Assembly: GCA_045863335.1 (NCBI GenBank)
Contig: BTVY01000020.1
Span: 91,722 to 108,670, forward strand
Source: Candidatus Hydrogenedentota bacterium
GTDB lineage: Bacteria > Hydrogenedentota > Hydrogenedentia > Hydrogenedentales > SLHB01
Reading direction: 5' to 3'
Length of the DNA stretch: 16,949 bases
Shown: positions 5,594-14,930 of the stretch, piece after piece
Layout of the letters: every line of letters begins with the position of its first letter
Position numbering within the stretch: the first letter of the stretch is position 1
Notes under the pieces: generated by a model
The model's database searches: none
What the model saw: the letters and a program-made list of their open reading frames with translations, nothing else
Told to the model about the DNA's origin: nothing
Made by a program: the position numbers and the translations under genes

Positions 5594-6547
5594 CTACTCT
5601 GCCTTCTGGAGTTCCGTCCTCAACGTGTTCGCCGCGTCGATCGCCAGCGCGCGTTCCGCAACAAACGTCACGCCCCCAACATACGGCCCCTCCGCAAACA
5701 CGACATCGTAATATCCCCCGCCCATATCCGCCACATGAAGCGATGTCTCCCCGTCGACCAATTCCTCCGCATCATCGCCGTACTTCTTCATGTAGTCGAC
5801 GAACGCGTCGCGCGTTTCTCGCGCATTCGCTTCGGCCTCCCGCTTCGCCACAAACGCCGTGACCTCCGCTTCGCCGTAGCGATACTGCGCGGTGAACGTG
5901 TCCTCCATAAAGCTGAGGCTCATCGCATCAACCATGAAATACTGAATCGAGCCCGGCACCAGGTTCTTTTCCGGCAGCACCGTCAAACCCCAAAGCGATT
6001 CCCCGGAATCCGGCAACGCGTTCGCCAGCCCGCCCGCAATCCGTTGCTGGGCTTCGCGTACTTCCGGCGCTTCGCTGGACCCCAGGACCGTCGCGTAGTA
6101 CGCACCCTTCCAGAAGAACGCGTCCGTATCCGTCCGGTACCCTTCCCTCCCCCACGCCGCCGCTTCCCAATCCCCCCATCGCTCGACGCTGTACACGCCG
6201 AACCCGCCAGCCACGCTTCCCATGTCGTAGAGGAAGACATCAACAAAATCTGTGGGATGCCCGGTACGCGTATACGTGGCAAACACCATCCCGCGCACGC
6301 CGTAGGACATGTACAACTCAGATCGGCCGTTGATCTTGTCGTAGAGGTTCTCGACCACGTACCGCTCGACGGGCGAACGCTCCCACCCTTCCACGTCGAC
6401 GCCCGATAACGCGGCAGCAATCGTGGAGGTAAGCTTATCGAGCTGCACAGGTTCCACTGCGGTCCCGCCGCCGCCATCATCCTCTTGGCCAAGCGCCACC
6501 AAGCCTGTGAATACAACGGCACAAACGACGATCGTGCGAAGATACAT
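5594..6547 (-). CDS. Secreted DUF6599-like protein of unknown function, 317 aa
   Basis: ATG at 6547 with RBS GGAAGGA; Sec-type signal MYLRTIVVCAVVFTGLVALG; motifs ENLYDKINGRSELYMSYG and VFLYDMGSVAGGFGVYS, which I recognise as DUF6599-like and which are shared with the 12007..13122 product. Confidence 0.8.
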   Translation of the reverse strand: MYLRTIVVCAVVFTGLVALGQEDDGGGGTAVEPVQLDKLTSTIAAALSGVDVEGWERSPVERYVVENLYDKINGRSELYMSYGVRGMVFATYTRTGHPTDFVDVFLYDMGSVAGGFGVYSVERWGDWEAAAWGREGYRTDTDAFFWKGAYYATVLGSSEAPEVREAQQRIAGGLANALPDSGESLWGLTVLPEKNLVPGSIQYFMVDAMSLSFMEDTFTAQYRYGEAEVTAFVAKREAEANARETRDAFVDYMKKYGDDAEELVDGETSLHVADMGGGYYDVVFAEGPYVGGVTFVAERALAIDAANTLRTELQKAE

Positions 6548-6599
6548 CTGAACAGTTCCTTCCAAAGCGCCCAGCATAGCGCGGAGTTACGCAAACGTC

Positions 6600-6628
6600 T
6601 TGACCGCAGTCGCATCTTGCGATACTGT
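6600..6628 (+). promoter_or_regulatory. Putative sigma70-type promoter overlapped by an imperfect inverted repeat
   Basis: TTGACC (6600-6605), 17-nt spacer, TACTGT (6623-6628) in the divergent intergenic region; the dyad CAGTCGCA-TCT-TGCGATACTG overlaps it. Confidence 0.4.
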
Positions 6629-6693
6629 GAAGCCTTAGTCTAGCTGCAAGTCCGGTTCGAAATGCAAGGTCCTACGACGTGGGAGACCCTATC

Positions 6694-7731
6694 ATGAAAC
6701 CGTCCGATCGATCCGCAGGGATAAACCGCCGCACCTTCATGCAAACCTCGGCCGCTTCGTTGGCCGCAGCCGCCGCGCTTCCGGGACGCGCTCACGCGCA
6801 AGATGCCGAACTCGACCGGCGTCACGAAGTCGAAGGCATGCCCTACCAGAAGCTCGGCAAGACCAACTTCATGTGCAGCCGGCTCGTCTTCGGATGCGGC
6901 GCCGCGCTCGCGGGCGGCAAGGCGGTGCGCTTGCTCGATCGCGCATTGGAAGCGGGCATCAACTTCTATGACGTCGGGTCGAACGTCTACTACAAGGGGA
7001 GCGAGCAACACCTCGCCCCCTTCATGAAAGCCAACCGCGACGCCATCTGGGTTACCTCCAAAGCCCCCGTCCGCGCGCCGGAAGGCCACGAGCCCGGCAC
7101 GCCGCTTACGGTCGCGCAGGGCAAGGAAGTCGCCGCGTACTGGACCGGCCTCCTCGAGAACAGCCTGCGCGACCTTGACACCGACTACATCGACGCCTAT
7201 TACCTGATGGCCGTCGGCGAACCCGCCATCGTCCGCAGCGAAGAAGTCCATCAAGCCTTTCTCGACGCGAAACAGGCCGGCAAGATCGGCCACTTCGGCG
7301 TCAGCACGCACAAGCAGGCGCACGAAGTCCTGGAAGCCATGATCGAAACCGGCTGGTACAGCCTCGCGATGATCGCCATCACGCCCGCCGGCTGGTACGA
7401 CTGGGATTCCAAGAGCATCCTGGCCGGCACCGCATCAATGCAAAACCTCCGTCCCGTGCTCGATCGCGCGCGCGAAGCGGGCATCGGCCTCGTCGGCATG
7501 AAGGCAGCCCGGTTCCTCGCCAGTCCCGGCGCAGGTGGCAAGAACGACGCGACCGCCTTCGACCGCTACTACGACCAGAAGGTGCTGGACGCCCCGTTGA
7601 CGCCGTTCCAACGAAGCTACGCCTACGTCCTCGCCAATGGCGTGGACGTTGTCAACTCCGACATGCAAAACTTCGAGCACTTCGAAGCCAACCTCTCGGC
7701 CGTGAAAGAAGCGCCTCGCTACTTCACATAA
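6694..7731 (+). CDS. Tat-signal aldo/keto reductase family protein without Fe-S tail, 345 aa
   Basis: ATG at 6694 with RBS GGGAG; Tat signal INRRTFMQ...AHA; AKR motifs MPYQKLGKT..SRLVFG, GINFYDVGSNVY, VTSK, ENSLRDLDTDYID, AKQAGKIGHFGVSTH, IGLVGMK. Confidence 0.88.
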   Translation: MKPSDRSAGINRRTFMQTSAASLAAAAALPGRAHAQDAELDRRHEVEGMPYQKLGKTNFMCSRLVFGCGAALAGGKAVRLLDRALEAGINFYDVGSNVYYKGSEQHLAPFMKANRDAIWVTSKAPVRAPEGHEPGTPLTVAQGKEVAAYWTGLLENSLRDLDTDYIDAYYLMAVGEPAIVRSEEVHQAFLDAKQAGKIGHFGVSTHKQAHEVLEAMIETGWYSLAMIAITPAGWYDWDSKSILAGTASMQNLRPVLDRAREAGIGLVGMKAARFLASPGAGGKNDATAFDRYYDQKVLDAPLTPFQRSYAYVLANGVDVVNSDMQNFEHFEANLSAVKEAPRYFT

Positions 7732-7740
7732 TGTTCCCAA

Positions 7741-7821
7741 ATGTAGCGCAGGCGTCCTCGCCTGCATTCTTTTGAGTCGCACCTTATTCTCAGAATGCAG
7801 GCGGGGACGCCTGCGCTACAT
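7741..7821. repeat. GTAG-type REP doublet (REPIN-like) between convergent genes; possible bidirectional terminator or mRNA stabiliser
   Basis: ATGTAGCGCAGGCGTCCTCGCCTGCATTCT (7741-7770) and its reverse complement at 7792-7821 (29/30). Each arm is GTAG followed by an internal palindrome GCAGGCG..CGCCTGC. Confidence 0.85.
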
Positions 7822-7832
7822 ATTTCAACGAT

Positions 7833-9035
7833 TTATGCCGTCAAGACCGCCCGCGCTTTGCGCAGCCGCTCGTCAATACGAATCCCCTGCGGGCACGCCT
7901 TGATGGCCTCGGCCAGATCGACCCGCTCATAATCCCGTTCTTCCACGCCCAGTGCGTTGTACAGCAAACGGGCCGTCTCGGGATCGCCGTAGCACTCGTG
8001 ATACATGAGGTACCGGAGCGCATCCGCAACCTTGAGCTTCCCGGCGATTTTGCCTTCGCAGATTTGATTGCACCCCAGGCACGCGTACGACGCCGTCATG
8101 CGCGCCAGCCGGTTCAACTGATGAAACTCGTTCATCGTCAGGTTCACCGGCGACATTGCGGCCGTCGCGTTTTCTTCCAGTATCTGCAAGTTGTCCATCT
8201 GGCTGACACAACCGTCGATCCGCTCGTCGGCCCACACCGCCTTGAGTTTCGCCTGCGGCAACGTGAAGTCCTTGGACTGGAACTCGACGACCTTCTCCAA
8301 ATCCTCCGGTACGGACGATTGGGTCTTCATCGCGAGCAGTCCGATCCCCGCCTTCTTTGCGGCGTCCATCGCCTTGTTCAATTCCACGTCCCCATACTGC
8401 CGGAAGTTATACCGGAACATGATCGCGTCGATACCCCCGACACTCGCCGCTTTGGAAATCATCTCCGGCACGTTGCCGTGGTGACAGGAAAAACCGAAGA
8501 ACTTCGTTTTCCCGCTCTTTTTCATGTCGTCGCCGGCCTTGATGAACTCGGGATCGAGATAACGCGGGTCCTGGATCATGTGCATGAAGAACATGTTGAC
8601 GTAGTCGGTCTCGAGATTGGCGAGACAGTCGTCCAGACCCTTCTTCAATCCTTCGCCCGTGGTGCGCTCCCCTTCCATCTCGACTTTGGTCGTGATCCAG
8701 ACCTTGTCCCGGCCGACCTGCTTGTGGAAGACCGCCACGCCCTTCTGGGACTGGCCGCCGCCGTATTTCTCCGCCGTATCGATGTACTCGATGCCGAATC
8801 CATGCGCGCGATGCAGCGACCGGTCGTACTTCATGTCGAACGTCCGCGATCCTCCCATGAAGATGATCGGAATCGTTTCGCCCGTCGTGCCGAGTTGTCG
8901 TCGCGGCACCGTCGTAGCCGCCGCGTCCGCGTTCTGCGCTTCTGCCGTGGTTGCCGCGAGGCCCGAAACACCGGCGCCAACCCCGCCCATGGCAACCCCT
9001 TTCATGAACGATCGTCTGTCCATTGCACTCTTCAT
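7833..9035 (-). CDS. Tat-signal aldo/keto reductase with C-terminal Fe-S domain, 400 aa
   Basis: ATG at 9035 with RBS AGAAGGA (the ORF-track start at 9173 is likely too long); Tat signal MDRRSFMK...AEA; catalytic tetrad DTAEKY / TTK / FFMH; FFGFSCH; GIGLLAMK; C-terminal CLGCNQIC...CPQG. Confidence 0.9.
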   Translation of the reverse strand: MKSAMDRRSFMKGVAMGGVGAGVSGLAATTAEAQNADAAATTVPRRQLGTTGETIPIIFMGGSRTFDMKYDRSLHRAHGFGIEYIDTAEKYGGGQSQKGVAVFHKQVGRDKVWITTKVEMEGERTTGEGLKKGLDDCLANLETDYVNMFFMHMIQDPRYLDPEFIKAGDDMKKSGKTKFFGFSCHHGNVPEMISKAASVGGIDAIMFRYNFRQYGDVELNKAMDAAKKAGIGLLAMKTQSSVPEDLEKVVEFQSKDFTLPQAKLKAVWADERIDGCVSQMDNLQILEENATAAMSPVNLTMNEFHQLNRLARMTASYACLGCNQICEGKIAGKLKVADALRYLMYHECYGDPETARLLYNALGVEERDYERVDLAEAIKACPQGIRIDERLRKARAVLTA

Positions 9036-9200
9036 GCGAAGGTTCCTTCTTTCCCGGTTAGTGCCTCGAATTCCGGCTTTCACGTCGAACAACAAGCAAC
9101 TTCTATACGGTATGTCACGTCTCAGCGCGGCTGATAAGAAGTTCCAGATCAGCCGGGGCGAAACCCGTCCCACCAGGAACTCCCTTCGCTCCGGCGTGTG

Positions 9201-9262
9201 ATTCGAATTTAGAACATTAGAATTTGTTTCGGATTTCGTGCTTCGGATTTCGAATTTCGTTC
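9201..9262. repeat. Heptameric tandem-repeat element (TTCGGAT/TTCGAAT-type)
   Basis: AT-rich run TTCGAAT TTAGAAC ATTAGAAT TTGT TTCGGAT TTCGTGC TTCGGAT TTCGAAT TTCGTTC in a GC-rich background; a degenerate inverted copy is split by the IS at 13380-13397 + 14735-14750. Confidence 0.8.
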
Positions 9263-9296
9263 CGTACCGAGTCCTCGAAAAATCCGACGACAGTCT

Positions 9297-10970
9297 TTAC
9301 GCCTGTGTTTCGCCACGTTTCTTCAGCAGCAGTTTCCGTTCGTTGGACCGGCTCTCTCCGACGGCCGTGACATAAACCGCGCGGTCATCTTTTACCGGAC
9401 ACTCATGCTCACAAATTCCGCACCCAATGCACAGGTCTGGAACCATGAACGGCTTGTTCAGTACCACGATATTGCCGTACACGTCCTTGGCTTCAACGTC
9501 TTTCGTTTGAATGGCCTTCGGCGAAGTCGGACACACCTCCTCGCACACCACGCACGGAATCTCCATCGCATGCGGCAGGCACCGGCCTGTGTCAAAAAAC
9601 GCAGTACCCAACTGAATGGGCCCCTGCTCCTCGAATTGTCCTTTGCCCAGCTTCTCTTCGACCGTGATCTTCCGGATCGCGCCTGTGGGACAAACCTCCG
9701 AACACATGGTGCATTTGAGCTGGCAGTGCCCAAGCTCGAAGTTCATCACCGGCGTCCACAATCCCTCCAGCCCCGCTTCTTTGAATGTGGCGGGCTGAAG
9801 CACGTTGGTCGGACACGAGTTGATGCACTGATCGCACTTGATGCACTTCGCGAGAAAGTCGCTCTCTTCCACCGACCCGGGCGGACGCATCAGACTCGGT
9901 TCGAAATGATCGTCCGTATTCACCCCGTGGTTCCGGATGAACGGCACGGCCAACACGCCTGCCACCCCCGCGAAGATCCACTTGCGCCGCGACACGTCAG
10001 GGCCTGGCTTGACCTGTTTCGTATCAAGCTTGAACGCCGTGAACGACAACGCGTCCTCCGGACAATCGTCGATGCAGTTCATGCAGGAAAAGCACTCGCT
10101 CTGCCGCAGAATCCCCTGCGGATCGGAAGCGCCTTCGCAGCGCGTCAAGCACAGGTTGCAATCCGTGCACTTGTGCACGTCGCGGTTAATGCGGAACACC
10201 GCGAATCGCGAAAAGACGCCGAGCAACGCACCCAAAGGACACAACACGCGGCAAAAGAACCGCGGTATGTACAGGTTCATCGCGACGAGCCCAAAGATCA
10301 TCACGCCGATCCAGAAGGAGCCGACAAAGACCCGGCTTGTCACGCCCGGCGCAAACTTCAGGTTGTCGATCCAGAGCGTGTCGAGATTCAGCCCGTGCGC
10401 CGTAACGGACGCCTGCGTGACACCCATGTCAAACATGGGCGCGAACACCGTCGCGAAACTGCGGTACATAAGACAAATCGGATCGAGCAGGCCAATCTGC
10501 AGCGCGCCCATCCAGGCCATGATTAGAAAGACCGTCAGTATGAGGTACTTGACGTAATAGAGGTTCTTGTACCGGTTCTGGTCAATGCGATCCGTCGCCT
10601 TGTGAACGTTGAACAGCCACCCCACGAACTGGTGCAAAGTCCCGTAGGGGCAAATCCAGTTGCAGAACACGCGCCCAAACAACAGCGTGATCGCAAGAAT
10701 GAGCAGTCCCCACCCGAGATAGCGGTAGACGTATCCCGTGGACAACATGGTCGAGATCATGACCAGCGGGTCCATCTCGAGAATGCGGGACACCGGGTAA
10801 CCGCCCAGCCGCGTGGTCCACGTCGCCCAAACAGAAAACATGAAGACGGCGAAGAAGAAAATCTGCGACAGAATCCGGATGTTCGTGATGCGAAGTGCCT
10901 TGCGGACGGAGAAATTCTCCCACTTCGCCTTGCCGCTCTTGACCAGCTTTACTGCCTTGCTCTCAGCCAT
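9297..10970 (-). CDS. Membrane polyferredoxin: NapH/MauN-like membrane domain fused to a NapG/MauM-like 4Fe-4S domain, 557 aa
   Basis: About four N-terminal TM helices; two CxxxCP motifs ([16 protein letters not shown]); [11 protein letters not shown] and [12 protein letters not shown]; then SRRKWI plus a hydrophobic helix; LMRPPGS; [47 protein letters not shown]. Confidence 0.92.
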
Positions 10971-10976
10971 GACGTC

Positions 10977-12023
10977 TTACACCTGGGTCTCGCGCACGCG
11001 CCCGTACCAATCCAACGACCCGCTCCCCTTTTCCTCCGCCTTGTAAAGGTATTGGGGATAATCGCGGCCCCGTTCGAGCAGGTATTCGAAGGCCCACGCG
11101 TCGCAGGCCACCGGATCAACGGAGGCTAGGACGGCATCGCCCTTCTTCACGTTCGACGGATCGCCGCCGGTCGGACCGTTCTGCATGAGCACATGGGTTC
11201 CGTCGAGGATCGTCAGCGTGGGTTTCATCATGATCGACAGATCGGACACGATCCCATGGATGTCCTGATGAAATTGGTTCCGCGTTCCGCCCAGAAGGCC
11301 GTACCAGTTCTTCATCCCCATCGACGCCCCGCAAAGGTTGTGGTCCTTAACCGGAGACAGGCCGATGACCTTGTCCACGTTCGTGAAGGGCCGATGGAAG
11401 AACCACCAGTTCTCTATCAATTCCGCGCCCGGCGTGTTCAGCATCTTGAAGGCATTGGAATCGGGCAGGTACACCCGCCCCCCCGCTTCGACCGTCGCCG
11501 CGTCGATCTTGCTCTTCGCAAAACAGTCCGGCGGAGACTCAATCGGGTTATCCGCGACACGCACTTCCTGCGCCCGGCAATCGACGAGGAGCATGTGAAT
11601 GAGTTCTTTGAGCAGTTTCGGATTCGACGTGGCGCCCAGGTTCGGCGCGCGGTCGAACGCGACGTTCGGCTTTACCAGCACGATGTCGCCGGGCTTGATG
11701 TAATGGTCAAGACCTCCCACGCCGTCCAGCGCCGCGCGCAACATCGTCGCGGGTTCCTCGCCCCGGCCAATGCCCACGTCGGACGCGCTCGCCGGTTTGG
11801 CGACTTGATAGGTTCCCGGCAATTGAAGCGGCTTCACGACCGGCACGCTGCGAAGGCCGGTCGGATCCTTTAACGACAGCGGCCAGTCCGACGGCGCCCA
11901 TGCCAGATACCCGGCGGCGGCACTAATGCCTCCCACCGTGCCCAGGCGGCCGAAGAAGGCGCGCCGGTCCATCGGCGCCTTCTCGTATTCCGGATGCTGG
12001 ATTGTCTTAGGCTTCTTCTTCAT
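10977..12023 (-). CDS. Tat-signal DUF362 domain protein, 348 aa
   Basis: MDRRAFF twin-arginine motif plus hydrophobic stretch; DUF362-type motifs IKPGDIVLVKPN, ATSNP, VKDH..SMGMKNWYG, NGPTGG, DPVACDA. Overlaps the upstream gene and ends 6 nt before the polyferredoxin start. Confidence 0.88.
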   Translation of the reverse strand: MKKKPKTIQHPEYEKAPMDRRAFFGRLGTVGGISAAAGYLAWAPSDWPLSLKDPTGLRSVPVVKPLQLPGTYQVAKPASASDVGIGRGEEPATMLRAALDGVGGLDHYIKPGDIVLVKPNVAFDRAPNLGATSNPKLLKELIHMLLVDCRAQEVRVADNPIESPPDCFAKSKIDAATVEAGGRVYLPDSNAFKMLNTPGAELIENWWFFHRPFTNVDKVIGLSPVKDHNLCGASMGMKNWYGLLGGTRNQFHQDIHGIVSDLSIMMKPTLTILDGTHVLMQNGPTGGDPSNVKKGDAVLASVDPVACDAWAFEYLLERGRDYPQYLYKAEEKGSGSLDWYGRVRETQV

Positions 12024-13122
12024 CGCTCAGGAAAGCCTCCTGCAATGTTGCGAGGGTCCCTTCCGCGTCGAGTTCCGCGGACGCGCCGTCGAACCCGAAC
12101 ACCCATGGGCCTACCTGCTTCATGGCGAGTCGGGTCTCGAGGAACTTGTGGGTCAGAATGACGCTGTCTTCGGTGCGAAGTACCTCGTCGTAGTCGTAGA
12201 GATTGTTTTCTACCAGTTGGTCGAATAGTTCCCTTGCAGCATCGTCACTATCGGCCTTATGAACATAGTACCTGAAATCTTCGTGGATGTCAGGAGTCCC
12301 GAACCAGAAATCTTGGGCAAACTGGAACTGGAACACGTCGTTCTTCTCGAACCCTATGCCCGCAAAGGGGATATTGAGCACCTCCCGGAAGACGGTAAAC
12401 GCCCGGGGCGGCTCCGTATCCCCTCCCGGCAAAGCCGAAAACGTGTCCAGAATCTGCATGGCCTTGTCAGTTATGGCCGGCGCCTCCTCGTTGCCGGTCA
12501 ATTTGAAGTAGTATTGATTGACGATGCCAATGGCCCCAATCGTCGTTGGGTAATAGTGAGCGTTCCCCGACTGCTCCAACTCCCGGTCCTGGTCGCGCTG
12601 CGCGGCGAAGATGCCCAAGGCATTCTCGAAGGCGCCCATGTCGTAGAGTTCGATGTTGAGTTCCAGCCCTTCCGCCGCCCGCTCCAGACCGATGAAATGA
12701 AGCCGGACGAAACCGAACTGAAAATACTGAGGCGCGGCGCCGTTGATCTTCTCGTATAGATTGGATTCGTCAAACTCCTGAATCCGTGTCGCGGGCGTCC
12801 AACCGCCGTCCAGGATCTCCGGTGGAAAGATCCCCACGTCTACGGTCGCCGCGGACGCAGTACCACCCCCCTGCCCGGGCTCGGACCAGCGTTGGAGCGG
12901 CGTCCGGTAGAGGTTGTCCTCAACGCTCCCCTCTTCCATCAACTCCATGGAAATGTCGCGCTCGGTCGGATCGAAATCGTCCCGCTTGGCCAGGAACCAC
13001 CAACCCATCCCGATCACGATGAGCACGAACACCGCGCCAAACGCAATCTCGCCGGTCGGGATCTGCGTCCGAAACACACGACGCTTCCGCTGATTGAAAA
13101 TGGGATCTTTCTTCTTGGCCAT
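12007..13122 (-). CDS. Membrane-anchored DUF6599-like protein, 371 aa
   Basis: Basic N-terminus, single TM (IAFGAVFVLIVIGMGWWFLA), motifs SNLYEKINGAAPQYFQFGF and IELYDMGAFENALGIF paralogous to 5594..6547; 17-nt overlap with the DUF362 gene suggests translational coupling. Confidence 0.82.
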   Translation of the reverse strand: MAKKKDPIFNQRKRRVFRTQIPTGEIAFGAVFVLIVIGMGWWFLAKRDDFDPTERDISMELMEEGSVEDNLYRTPLQRWSEPGQGGGTASAATVDVGIFPPEILDGGWTPATRIQEFDESNLYEKINGAAPQYFQFGFVRLHFIGLERAAEGLELNIELYDMGAFENALGIFAAQRDQDRELEQSGNAHYYPTTIGAIGIVNQYYFKLTGNEEAPAITDKAMQILDTFSALPGGDTEPPRAFTVFREVLNIPFAGIGFEKNDVFQFQFAQDFWFGTPDIHEDFRYYVHKADSDDAARELFDQLVENNLYDYDEVLRTEDSVILTHKFLETRLAMKQVGPWVFGFDGASAELDAEGTLATLQEAFLSDEEEA

Positions 13123-13220: not shown

Positions 13221-13397
13221 AGGAAGTTCTAGAGAAATCCGTCTCGACAAACACCTTCAATCCTGTTCAGGCAAACGGATTTGCCATCTCCGATACACGC
13301 TGCCAACGCGGATTCGTCGGCAAGGTCCACAACCAGAGGTTGCACGCGACCGCCTCAGATCCCGAGCACCACCACAACCAAATTTGAAACTCGAAGC

Positions 13398-14725
13398 CAC
13401 TACTGTCCGGTTGAGTTTTTGAAATTCAATTGGAAGCATAGTATTTACAGCATCTTGTATAGAAGAATGATCGTTTCCGATTTCGCGATGGTTTCGGTTT
13501 GTGACCATACTCCGAGGAGACTTTCACTCGGGGGGATGGCCTATGCACACCGGACGGCTTGTGTTCGCTCAACTTCTCGACTTCATTCCACGACACGAAT
13601 TCAATCGATGCGCTCGACGATATCGCGGCAACCATCGAGTTCGTTCGTTCTCCTGCTGGGACCAATTTTTGTGTATGGTCTTCGCCCAATTGACGGGGCG
13701 AGAGAGCCTGCGCGATATCGAGACCTGTCTGCGCGCCATGCACCCCAAGCTCTACCATGCAGGCATTCGGGGACACGTCTCGCGCAGTACCTTGGCGGAT
13801 GCAAACGAAACACGCGACTGGCGCATCTATGCAGACTTCGCTCAGACACTCATCACCACCGCACGAACGCTTTACGCGCGCGAAGAGTTTGGTGTCCAAC
13901 TCGCTCACACCGCCTATGTGTTCGACTCGACGACCATAGACCTGTGTCTTGCGTTGTTTCCATGGGCCCATTTCCGTCGGCACAAAGGAGCCGTGAAACT
14001 TCACACGCTGCTCGATCTGCATGGCGGTATTCCTTGCTTTATCCGCGTAACGCATGCCAAAACGCACGATGTCACTGCTCTCGACTATCTCGTCTTGGAG
14101 CCGGGCTCTTATTACATCATGGACCGCGGCTACATCGACTTTGCACGACTGTATCGCTTCAACGAAGCCCTGTCATTCTTTGTGGTGCGCTCCAAGAAGA
14201 ACCTCGACTATCAGCGCCGAGCATGCCGCCCCGTCGACAAGACAACTGGACTGCGTGCCGATCAAACCATCGTACTCTGCGGTCCCAAAACCTCTCAGCA
14301 GTATCCGGTTCCTCTACGACGCATCACCTACTTCGACTCCGTGAACCACACGCACTTCGTGTTTCTTGCCAACAACTTCGACTTGCCCGCCCTGACCATC
14401 GCTCAGCTTTACCGGTGCCGATGGCAAGTCGAACTCTTCTTCAAATGGGTCAAGCAGCACTTGCACATCAAGTCGTTTTATGGGACTTCCGAGAACGCGG
14501 TCAAGACCCAAATCTGGATTGCCGTCGCGACATACCTCTTGGTGGCGATTATCAAGAAAAGACTCAACCTCGCTTGGAGTCTGAACGAAATCCTGCAAAT
14601 ACTGAGCATCTCTCTTTTCGAAAATACCCCGATTTTACAGGCGTTTTCGCCCGATGAACGACAAACGCAAAGTAACCTCCTGCGTAACCAGATGGAACTA
14701 TTCAACTTTTAACCGGACAGCAGTG
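13398..14725 (+). mobile_element. Complete IS4-family insertion sequence, 1328 bp (CA...TG ends, probably IS4Sa-like)
   Basis: IRL CACTACTGTCCGGTT (13398-13412); IRR AACCGGACAGCAGTG (14711-14725, 14/15 match); perfect 9-bp target duplication ACTCGAAGC at 13389-13397 and 14726-14734; visibly lower GC than the flanks. Confidence 0.95.
13543..14712 (+). CDS. IS4-family DDE transposase (DUF4372-type N-terminus), 389 aa
   Basis: MHTGRLVFAQLLDF..FSCWDQFLCMVFAQLTGRESLRDIE; catalytic FDSTTI and MDRGY; IS4 signature Y-(2)-R-(3)-E-(6)-K in YRCRWQVELFFKWVK; the stop codon overlaps the right IR; reading frame intact. Confidence 0.95.
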   Translation: MHTGRLVFAQLLDFIPRHEFNRCARRYRGNHRVRSFSCWDQFLCMVFAQLTGRESLRDIETCLRAMHPKLYHAGIRGHVSRSTLADANETRDWRIYADFAQTLITTARTLYAREEFGVQLAHTAYVFDSTTIDLCLALFPWAHFRRHKGAVKLHTLLDLHGGIPCFIRVTHAKTHDVTALDYLVLEPGSYYIMDRGYIDFARLYRFNEALSFFVVRSKKNLDYQRRACRPVDKTTGLRADQTIVLCGPKTSQQYPVPLRRITYFDSVNHTHFVFLANNFDLPALTIAQLYRCRWQVELFFKWVKQHLHIKSFYGTSENAVKTQIWIAVATYLLVAIIKKRLNLAWSLNEILQILSISLFENTPILQAFSPDERQTQSNLLRNQMELFNF

Positions 14726-14930
14726 ACTCGAAGCACAGAATCCAAAACAACTCTCAATACTTCAACGACCGGCCGATGTGCTAAGTCGACACAAAGGCGA
14801 TCGCGACATTGCATCCCCGGAAGCACGACCTGGGAGCAACCCCGAATCGCCGCATTTCGTGATCCGAATTGGCCCCGAAGGTAATCCCTTGAGCGTCGCT
14901 CAGAATCGCCGTAGGCCCTGCTACGTATAA

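Follow-up and report, generated by a model that had tools for sequence, protein, structure and literature searches.

In the NapGH and MauMN systems, a membrane-embedded NapH-type protein and a four-cluster ferredoxin of the NapG type, exported via twin-arginine translocation (Tat), together feed a periplasmic enzyme. The polyferredoxin (PFD) of the delta proteobacterium MLMS-1 (Q1NSB0) is a NapH-NapG fusion that needs Sec as well as Tat (Tooke et al., 2017, PMC5449189); the sections of that paper available to us deal with membrane insertion only and name no partners, operon or function. A second relevant family is LarA, from the superfamily of 2-hydroxyacid racemases and epimerases, in which, according to the available text of PMC11770544, the cofactor, nickel-pincer nucleotide (NPN), is held by Lys184, His200 and Arg75, and His108 and His174 are catalytic. 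Here we describe a locus that brings relatives of these proteins together with aldo/keto reductases (AKRs) and proteins of the DUF6599 family. It lies at positions 5594-13122 of a 16,949-nucleotide stretch of contig BTVY01000020.1 (the window) from a Candidatus Hydrogenedentota bacterium. We read the locus, with a probability of roughly 0.55, as encoding a periplasm-facing, membrane-bound oxidoreductase complex with a DUF362 subunit of the NPN type.

The original prediction, made from the letters of this DNA alone, had grouped six genes of this region into one exported redox system. All six open reading frames (ORFs) are present and belong to the families proposed (Pfam); the motifs NRRTFM, DRRSFM, DRRAFF and SRRKWI occur in the proteins of the window, and the coupled genes do overlap by 17 nt (12007-12023) and stand 6 nt apart (10971-10976), exactly as stated. 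The six genes form two units rather than one system, namely a four-gene operon in the order DUF6599b-DUF362-polyferredoxin-AKR2 and a divergent pair, AKR1 and DUF6599a. This pair joins the operon in only three of 80 surveyed loci (L056, L057 and L065), all from close relatives, and the conserved system is the four-gene operon.

Conservation of the operon was assessed by scanning genome contigs with a DUF362 alignment. 209 stretches matched, 97 of them encode relatives, and the best 80 were kept; synteny was counted from tblastn matches, and only loci with enough contig room were counted as testable. A same-strand DUF6599 gene is found upstream of DUF362 in 63 of 69 testable loci, and a polyferredoxin gene downstream of it in 72 of 77; this is followed by an AKR gene in 54 of 64. 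The complete set, in the order of the window, is found in 45 of 57 loci. At a DUF362 identity of 58% or more with the window's protein, the full set is present without exception (40/40); below 58% identity it is found in 5/17, and the trio of DUF6599, DUF362 and polyferredoxin without an AKR is common. According to the record titles, the carriers are Hydrogenedentota, Planctomycetota, Acidobacteriota, SAR324, several gammaproteobacterial groups, Gemmatimonadetes, Verrucomicrobiia, Rokubacteria, Cloacimonadota and others; some taxon labels are doubtful, with L056 and other Hydrogenedentota-like loci titled 'uncultured Nitrospiraceae' or 'Nitrospirales'. The expectation that the families co-occur in other genomes is thus borne out across phyla, in this set of loci and in the DUF6599 sets described below, and chance clustering of the six genes is ruled out by synteny counts far beyond chance. 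No fifth gene family recurs in more than six of the 80 DUF362 loci, so the cassette is self-contained.

Some single loci depart from this picture. The operon of an Isosphaeraceae metagenome-assembled genome (MAG; L127, 9042-10426 and 12599-14302) holds two Uma2-family genes between DUF362 and polyferredoxin, and a dihydroxyacetone kinase gene (Dak1/Dak2), seen in this one locus only, comes after it; the inserted genes were discarded as a functional clue, being Uma2-type insertions. The window's genome contains a second DUF362-polyferredoxin pair (contig C27, 54258-56542; L136:181-3035), in which the polyferredoxin is 40% identical to that of the window; an outer-membrane efflux protein gene lies upstream, and neither DUF6599 nor AKR adjoins. 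A fusion of polyferredoxin and DUF6599 was found neither among eight long ORFs (Pfam) nor among all ORFs of L056-L134, searched with a DUF6599 hidden Markov model (HMM).

DUF362 (10977-12023, minus strand, 348 aa) matches PF04015 with 133.5 bits (cut-off 24) over profile positions 1-199 of 200. It is the most conserved protein of the set: its sequence is 60-86% identical between phyla, and it has Lys, His and Asp residues that do not vary. Its twin-arginine signal or anchor (aa 17-45, window 11889-11975) ends in A-x-A-P. A proline at +1 blocks signal peptidase, and the signal may stay uncleaved as a membrane anchor. Within the preceding residues (aa 1-16, window 11976-12023), the stretch IQHPEYEKAP is kept across phyla, which is unusual for an n-region; it may be the site that a Tat proofreading chaperone binds or, should the signal remain uncleaved, a cytoplasmic tail. 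An HMM scan with the Tat signal model TIGR01409 gave no match in the DUF362 signal region; AKR2 scored 21.1 bits and AKR1 16.7 bits (cut-off 16.7). The arginine pair is invariant in 25 of 25 DUF362 and in 28 of 28 AKR2 homologues, and tatC is present in the window's genome. These conserved motifs, together with tatC and the conserved gene linkage, are consistent with an export-directed redox system as predicted.

The structural model of DUF362 (predicted local distance difference test, pLDDT, 90.5) matches the N-domain of the LarA family only. VIA Z scores are 16.9 for 7s91, 16.3 for 9eia, 15.7 for 5huq, 15.2 for 9q3j and 14.7 for 4nar, and the next unrelated fold has a Z of 5.5. With the first three structures, 207-208 residues are aligned at a root-mean-square deviation (rmsd) of 2.8-3.1. 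Foldseek agrees, with a probability of 1.00. The matched proteins are LarA and Mar2, with residues 87-319 of the model lying on LarA 35-270. Judged by this model, DUF362 has the LarA N-domain fold, and the two families belong to one Pfam clan (PMC11770544, in the part available).

Residues H228, K238 and H252 are invariant and R125 is near-invariant in 25 DUF362 homologues (motif at window 11268-11342), and the spacing H228-x9-K238-x13-H252 compares with His174-x9-Lys184-x15-His200 in LarA. Offsets taken from the structural alignment put the motif residues of DUF362 onto those of LarA. In local hhalign comparisons with a LarA homologue from the window's genome, H228 falls on the equivalent of His174 (weak, E 0.33) and R125 falls one to two residues from the equivalent of Arg75 (weak, E 0.04); the position of His108 appears to be Asp158/Asn159 in DUF362. 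In global mode, hhalign returned nothing for DUF362 against LarA. The single DUF362 sequence had no match in the PDB, a DUF362-profile search gave only a chance match (E 0.47), and the Lar_N model (PF09861) did not match DUF362, for which Pfam lists DUF362 only; the true LarA homologues of the window's genome do match Lar_N. DUF362 shares with the LarA superfamily the N-domain fold and the Pfam clan, and its His-x9-Lys motif and following His are spaced nearly as in LarA. Unlike LarA, it is directed to export and encoded beside a putative iron-sulfur (Fe-S) wire, and this setting hints at a net redox reaction and not at racemisation.

Gene context provides stronger evidence for a link to NPN than the residue match. 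LarC adjoins the module in three of the 80 DUF362 loci (L080, L098 and L099). In an Acidobacteriota MAG (L080, 12060-14861) genes for an AIR-carboxylase-type (AIRC) protein (LarB-type), LarC and a PP-loop protein (LarE-like, a weak match of 23.4 bits) come after the operon, on its strand. In an Arenicellales MAG (L098, 4807-6872) AIRC (LarB-like) and LarC genes stand ahead of the operon, with a LarA homologue in divergent orientation. LarC also adjoins seven of 80 AKR-DUF6599 loci that were selected by a lipoprotein-type DUF6599 (see below); all seven hold DUF362, and they fall among the 20 loci having DUF362 and/or polyferredoxin (7/20) and not among the others (0/60).

In the window's own genome LarC is found with an E-value of 3e-148. 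There, larC is followed by a cytidylyltransferase-like gene (L256:4659-6619, contig C6), possibly a nicotinate-nucleotide adenylyltransferase, the maker of the NPN precursor nicotinic acid adenine dinucleotide (NaAD); larB and larE do not adjoin, and a genome-wide search for them was not made. LarC is also present in five of five distant module-bearing genomes, two of which have no Lar_N match. Among 151 gammaproteobacterial genomes, DUF362 was matched in five, LarC in five and Lar_N in two. The DUF362 match in G087 is a cross-hit on a LarA gene, which leaves four genuine DUF362 genomes; three of these four have LarC, compared with 2/147 of the others. Two of the genomes, G043 and G046, combine LarC and DUF362 with no Lar_N match; the sample was centred on G043, which was known beforehand to carry LarC and DUF362. 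The same combination, LarC and DUF362 with no Lar_N match, is found in the control genomes of Synechococcus elongatus and Haloferax volcanii. In a published survey, about 15% of the genomes, including most cyanobacteria, have larB, larE and larC without larA, and an NPN-binding protein yet to be identified is expected in the field, above all for cyanobacteria (PMC11796402, in the sections at hand). At the end of a gammaproteobacterial contig (L168:4892-5284; G155:C59), a LarA-like (Lar_N) fragment lies just downstream of a DUF362-polyferredoxin-AKR module.

The proposal that DUF362 is a catalytic or cofactor-carrying partner fits both the LarA-like fold and the link to NPN biosynthesis genes. 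The chances that DUF362 is occupied by NPN seem to us about evenly balanced.

The polyferredoxin (9297-10970, minus strand) matches many Pfam Fer4 families and has NapH-like and NapG-like halves in NCBIfam, with scores far below the curated cut-offs in each case (napH 85.3 vs 213, PRK09477 83.9 vs 234, NapG PRK09476 82 vs 269, mauM_napG 61.5 vs 179). Its NapH-like part (window 9990-10970) is predicted to contain four transmembrane (TM) helices along with two CX3C pairs and, on the cytoplasmic side, two CxxCxxCxxxC motifs, and its NapG-like part (9300-9914) four outward-facing Cys motifs for clusters. Between the two (9915-9989) lie RR328-329 and a weakly hydrophobic fifth TM segment, TMD5 (residues 332-350, hydropathy 1.4 vs 1.6-2.2 for TMD1-4), followed by R and H residues. 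In 64 homologues, R329 is kept in all and R328 in 51, and 28 of the 29 Cys residues are invariant.

The architecture of the NapH-NapG-like polyferredoxin proposed for this locus is thereby borne out, and by its sequence the protein belongs with the PFD class of dual Sec/Tat fusions, which carry RR before TMD5, as this class is described in the available sections of PMC5449189. Compared by described features, the window's protein and the MLMS-1 PFD both have five TM segments, RR before a weak TMD5, positive charges after it, and cytoplasmic as well as external [4Fe-4S] motifs; seven clusters are predicted for the MLMS-1 protein, and six CxxC-type motifs plus two CX3C pairs are found here. NapGH and MauMN consist of two chains, whereas a single fused chain is present here. 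No Nap or Mau catalytic subunit is encoded in the locus; the partners are instead DUF362, an Fe-S-tailed AKR and DUF6599. The module is a variant of the type in which a NapGH-like unit feeds a periplasmic enzyme.

AKR2 (7833-9035, minus strand; PF00248, 71.5 bits, cut-off 24) most likely starts at 9035 (MKSAMDRRSFM) and not at 9173, where the longest ORF begins. Its predicted Tat signal comprises aa 1-33 (window 8937-9035). Alignment to 6kik shows that the catalytic tetrad D86, Y91, K117 and H152 is intact, and it is invariant in 28 homologues. The C-terminal tail (aa 319-381, window 7893-8081) has a CxxCxxxC...CP pattern in which C319, C322 and C326 are invariant and C381 is near-invariant (conservation in 52 and 28 homologues). 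Since four conserved Cys residues suffice, one [4Fe-4S] cluster is predicted in AKR2. The Fe-S tail proposed for the AKR therefore holds for AKR2 and not for AKR1 (6679-7731, plus strand; PF00248, 63 bits, cut-off 24), which has a Tat signal, is divergent from DUF6599a and is without a Cys tail. AKR1 keeps the Asp, Tyr and Lys of the tetrad and has Met at the His position (alignment to 1ynp).

The nearest solved structures, 6kik and 5dan from Thermotoga and 1ynp, are those of cytoplasmic NAD(P)H-dependent AKRs, with which the window's proteins have the (beta/alpha)8 barrel and, in AKR2, the tetrad in common. AKR2 differs from these enzymes in its Tat signal, its C-terminal [4Fe-4S] motif, its altered carboxamide positions and its DUF6599 partner. 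Unlike in canonical AKRs, the Pfam match covers only about the first two thirds of the profile (positions 20-166 in AKR1 and 24-192 in AKR2, of 291). In canonical AKRs the nicotinamide carboxamide is bound by residues that we take to be Asn and Gln; by alignment, AKR2 has Cys184 and an invariant His185 in place of the Asn and an invariant Phe207 in place of the Gln. These changes would argue against canonical nicotinamide binding.

The AKR data bear on a different explanation, which builds on the original prediction and in which the AKRs are the catalysts and carry tightly bound NAD(P)(H), recycled via the Fe-S tail and the polyferredoxin in a manner likened to the Tat-exported glucose-fructose oxidoreductase, with DUF362 as a mere accessory. 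Tat signals, typical of cofactor-loaded proteins, are present on both AKRs, AKR2 has the D-Y-K-H tetrad and an invariant cluster motif, and an AKR is encoded in 40/40 operons of close DUF362 relatives. We nevertheless consider this explanation unlikely, because the carboxamide positions are Cys184/His185 and Phe207 in AKR2, with His185 and Phe207 invariant, because AKR1 has neither the catalytic His nor an Fe-S tail, and because DUF362, with its high identity and its invariant Lys, His and Asp residues, does not resemble an accessory protein. Moreover, an AKR is not indispensable for the catalytic role that had been offered to it, since the core of DUF6599, DUF362 and polyferredoxin exists without an AKR, and commonly so, in distant clades.

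The DUF6599 family (PF20244) comprises 1045 cluster representatives at E<=1e-3. DUF6599b (12007-13122, minus strand; 65.2 bits, cut-off 27), encoded by the first gene of the operon, is predicted to begin with a short, basic tail, followed by a single TM helix (aa 26-44, window 12985-13053) and then by the DUF6599 domain outside the cytoplasm. DUF6599a (5594-6577, minus strand; 164 bits, cut-off 27), the partner of AKR1, has an N-terminal hydrophobic signal or anchor. To survey relatives, 20 of 42 listed DUF6599 sites were taken with up to 20 kb each and searched with the proteins of the window. An AKR gene adjoins DUF6599 in 16 of these 20 loci (exceptions: L035, L048, L049 and L050). The order DUF6599b-DUF362-polyferredoxin-AKR2 is repeated in L034, L036, L045 and L051, and a DUF6599a-type gene stands beside an AKR1-type gene in L033, L034, L036, L037 and L040. 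In eight loci, an AKR with about 30% identity to AKR2 is followed directly, in the downstream direction, by a DUF6599 with a lipoprotein-like signal. One of the eight (contig C7, 148833-151183; L032:8334-10684) lies in the window's genome itself, whose third DUF6599 gene, with a lipoprotein-type signal, comes immediately downstream of the gene for a Tat-signal AKR that has a Fer4_9/Fer4_17 tail; this two-gene form is common in Syntrophales and Nitrospirota.

A scan for lipoprotein-type DUF6599 matched 310 stretches, 234 of which encode relatives, and 80 were kept. These loci come mostly from Syntrophales/Smithellaceae and Nitrospirota/Thermodesulfovibrionales, with some from Hydrogenedentota. 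An AKR is encoded directly upstream, on the same strand and less than 500 bp away, in 74 of the 77 loci with room; in two of the three misses the AKR is 500-700 bp off, and in L189 there is none. DUF6599 is therefore a general partner of exported AKRs, which is newly recognised here. DUF362 and/or polyferredoxin are also carried by 20 of the 80 loci, 16 of them in the order AKR-DUF6599-DUF362-polyferredoxin; one of the remaining four has the order DUF362-polyferredoxin-AKR-DUF6599, two are divergent and one has a weak DUF362 match only. The presence of the four families together in different gene orders points to a shared function rather than an inherited order.

The model of DUF6599a (pLDDT 89) shows two predicted domains of a PsbP/Mog1/PknH-sensor-like fold. 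The first (residues 48-191) resembles the PknH extracellular sensor 4esq (VIA Z 12.4, rmsd 3.2, 133 residues aligned) as well as TiME, LpqN and TP0453; the second (residues 195-327) resembles TM1622 (1vr8; VIA Z 12.4, rmsd 3.0, 118 aligned) as well as MucB/RseB, Mog1 and PsbP. The sequence of DUF6599a gave a best E-value of 0.26 against the PDB. Many of the proteins with this fold (4esq, 7cu8, 1vr8, MucB/RseB, PsbP) are extracytoplasmic binding or docking proteins, like the role proposed for DUF6599. Unlike them, DUF6599 has two such domains in tandem and a fixed pairing with AKR or DUF362, and there is no sequence similarity. The non-catalytic look of the modelled two-domain fold would suit a scaffold or substrate-binding subunit, as originally suggested.

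Modelling of complexes had been suggested as a check, and for mature AKR2 with the outer part of DUF6599b the prediction gave a score of 0.54 (runs 0.53, 0.54 and 0.56; best control 0.00), with at least 27% of contacts in common between runs and a partner pLDDT of at least 79. In the calibration of the tool, its mark was reached by 58 of 80 solved complexes and by 2 of 110 mismatched pairs; at or below 0.60 were seven of the 80 solved complexes and both mismatches, and these counts hold only roughly for a run that used custom alignments and a riding 4Fe-4S. The prediction thus lends weak support to an AKR2-DUF6599b complex.

It could also be that two independent systems, an exported AKR-DUF6599 system and a DUF362-polyferredoxin system, are mere neighbours, often side by side, with no common complex or pathway. 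AKR-DUF6599 pairs with neither DUF362 nor polyferredoxin within 3.5 kb make up 60 of the 80 lipoprotein-type loci, the C27 pair in the window's genome has DUF362 and polyferredoxin without DUF6599 or AKR, and AKR1/DUF6599a in the window is itself a separate pair of this kind. In the four-gene form, however, DUF6599 adjoins DUF362, often with 4-nt overlaps, rather than the AKR; different phyla keep the four families together, in two or more gene orders; and the AKRs of both forms carry Fe-S motifs, hence need a redox partner. Independence of the two systems is thus distinctly improbable in our view.

Returning to the preferred reading of a periplasm-facing oxidoreductase complex, we infer its physical assembly, NPN occupancy, electron path, direction and substrate as follows. 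The polyferredoxin would act as a transmembrane iron-sulfur wire, with its NapH-like half in the membrane and two clusters on the cytoplasmic side; the NapG-like half with four clusters would be moved outward by Tat, so that the protein would connect the quinone pool or the cytoplasm with the outer face of the membrane. DUF362 would be loaded in the cytoplasm with NPN, a hydride-accepting cofactor, and then exported by Tat; such cytoplasmic loading would explain its Tat export. AKR2 would work outside on a hydroxy or carbonyl substrate, and its [4Fe-4S] cluster would exchange electrons with the NapG-like domain. DUF6599b, with its single TM anchor and its two PsbP/Mog1-like domains, may be a non-catalytic docking or ligand-binding subunit that holds the AKR at the membrane and organises the other subunits. 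The complex as a whole would catalyse, on the extracytoplasmic side, the oxidation or reduction of a hydroxy or carbonyl compound, trading electrons with either the quinone pool or the cytoplasm. By general redox potentials, thermodynamics would readily allow an alcohol or 2-hydroxy acid to be oxidised towards menaquinone; to reduce a carbonyl, the complex would have to draw low-potential input from the cytoplasmic clusters. AKR1 and DUF6599a represent a second, Fe-S-free case of the exported AKR/DUF6599 pairing.

Several points weigh against this reading. The residue match between DUF362 and LarA is suggestive, as its basis is the motif spacing, the overall structural offsets and weak hhalign matches; a rival local hhalign solution (E 0.62) pairs other regions of the two proteins, and DUF362 has no LarA C-terminal domain, the structural match ending at about LarA residue 270. 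DUF362 is found without LarC in the gammaproteobacterial genome G096 and in the control genome of Bacteroides thetaiotaomicron, and since related genomes are not independent, the signal looks larger in the profile counts than it is. All relatives from the window's order (31 of 31) have LarA homologues, as does the window's genome; DUF362 is therefore not needed to account for LarC in this lineage, and LarC was dropped as a discriminator within the order. The trio without AKR in 9 of 17 testable distant loci and the 60 lone AKR-DUF6599 pairs leave an obligate four-subunit complex unproven, and the complex prediction for AKR2 and DUF6599b is no stronger than weak. Finally, we know of no precedent for a flavin-free transfer in which NPN or an AKR would hand its hydride on to one-electron Fe-S clusters.

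A bolder version goes further and sees in DUF362 the missing non-LarA family that uses NPN, here in an extracytoplasmic net redox reaction as a flavin-free converter between hydride and single electrons. NPN would take a hydride from the substrate, perhaps held in the AKR barrel with its altered nicotinamide site, and the electrons would leave NPN singly into the membrane-crossing [4Fe-4S] chain. We put this forward tentatively and regard it as doubtful.

A maintenance or maturation device, in which the polyferredoxin supplies electrons for reductive repair, carbonyl detoxification or periplasmic processing of metals or cofactors on the model of MsrPQ and CcoG-type reductases, would suit a self-contained cassette with no conserved transporter, regulator or catabolic neighbour, AKRs that commonly detoxify aldehydes and NapH relatives that include assembly-related reductases, and is nonetheless very unlikely, since an enzyme dedicated to hydride transfer is what the strong NPN-biosynthesis link indicates.

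The surroundings of the cluster are not kept with it in other lineages. Its flanks hold genes for a sigma-54 activator, a UDP-sugar decarboxylase-like protein, an SSF transporter, an IS4 transposase, an esterase and a DUF2314 protein. A consensus scan marked a terminator-like GC-rich hairpin with a T-rich tail (7748-7765, plus strand) between the convergent AKR1 and AKR2 genes; in promoter and terminator consensus scans of the region, the numbers of sites were not above those in shuffled sequence. A single-copy IS4-family element with a DDE_Tnp_1 + DUF4372 transposase (13501-14712), flanked by 18-nt inverted repeats at 13395-13412 and 14711-14728, lies about 270 bp upstream of DUF6599b, the first gene of the operon. 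In a 97% identical relative (L056), 186 bp replace the window stretch 13275-14929. The element may have displaced or supplied the operon promoter.

In the literature we found no paper on DUF6599 and, in the texts available to us, DUF362 is mentioned as appended to CBM9 or as an outgroup of LarA, with no function assigned; no characterised complex of this composition and no study of the module's function were found. New here are the AKR-DUF6599 pairing, the two-domain fold of DUF6599, the LarA-like fold and motif of DUF362, the adjacency of lar genes and the LarC profile.

If the proposal holds, DUF362 would be a second protein family for the nickel-pincer cofactor and would answer the question that the field has left open (PMC11796402, as far as its available text goes); the NPN claim is directly testable with existing co-expression systems. 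NPN enzymes and enzymes of the AKR fold would act beyond the cytoplasm, with a polyferredoxin of hitherto unnamed partners as their wire to the membrane, and a flavin-free coupling of hydride chemistry to Fe-S clusters would be new redox enzymology. DUF6599 gains a role as dedicated partner of exported AKRs, and a role is offered for thousands of 'hypothetical' genes in anaerobes of sediments, groundwater and the deep sea.

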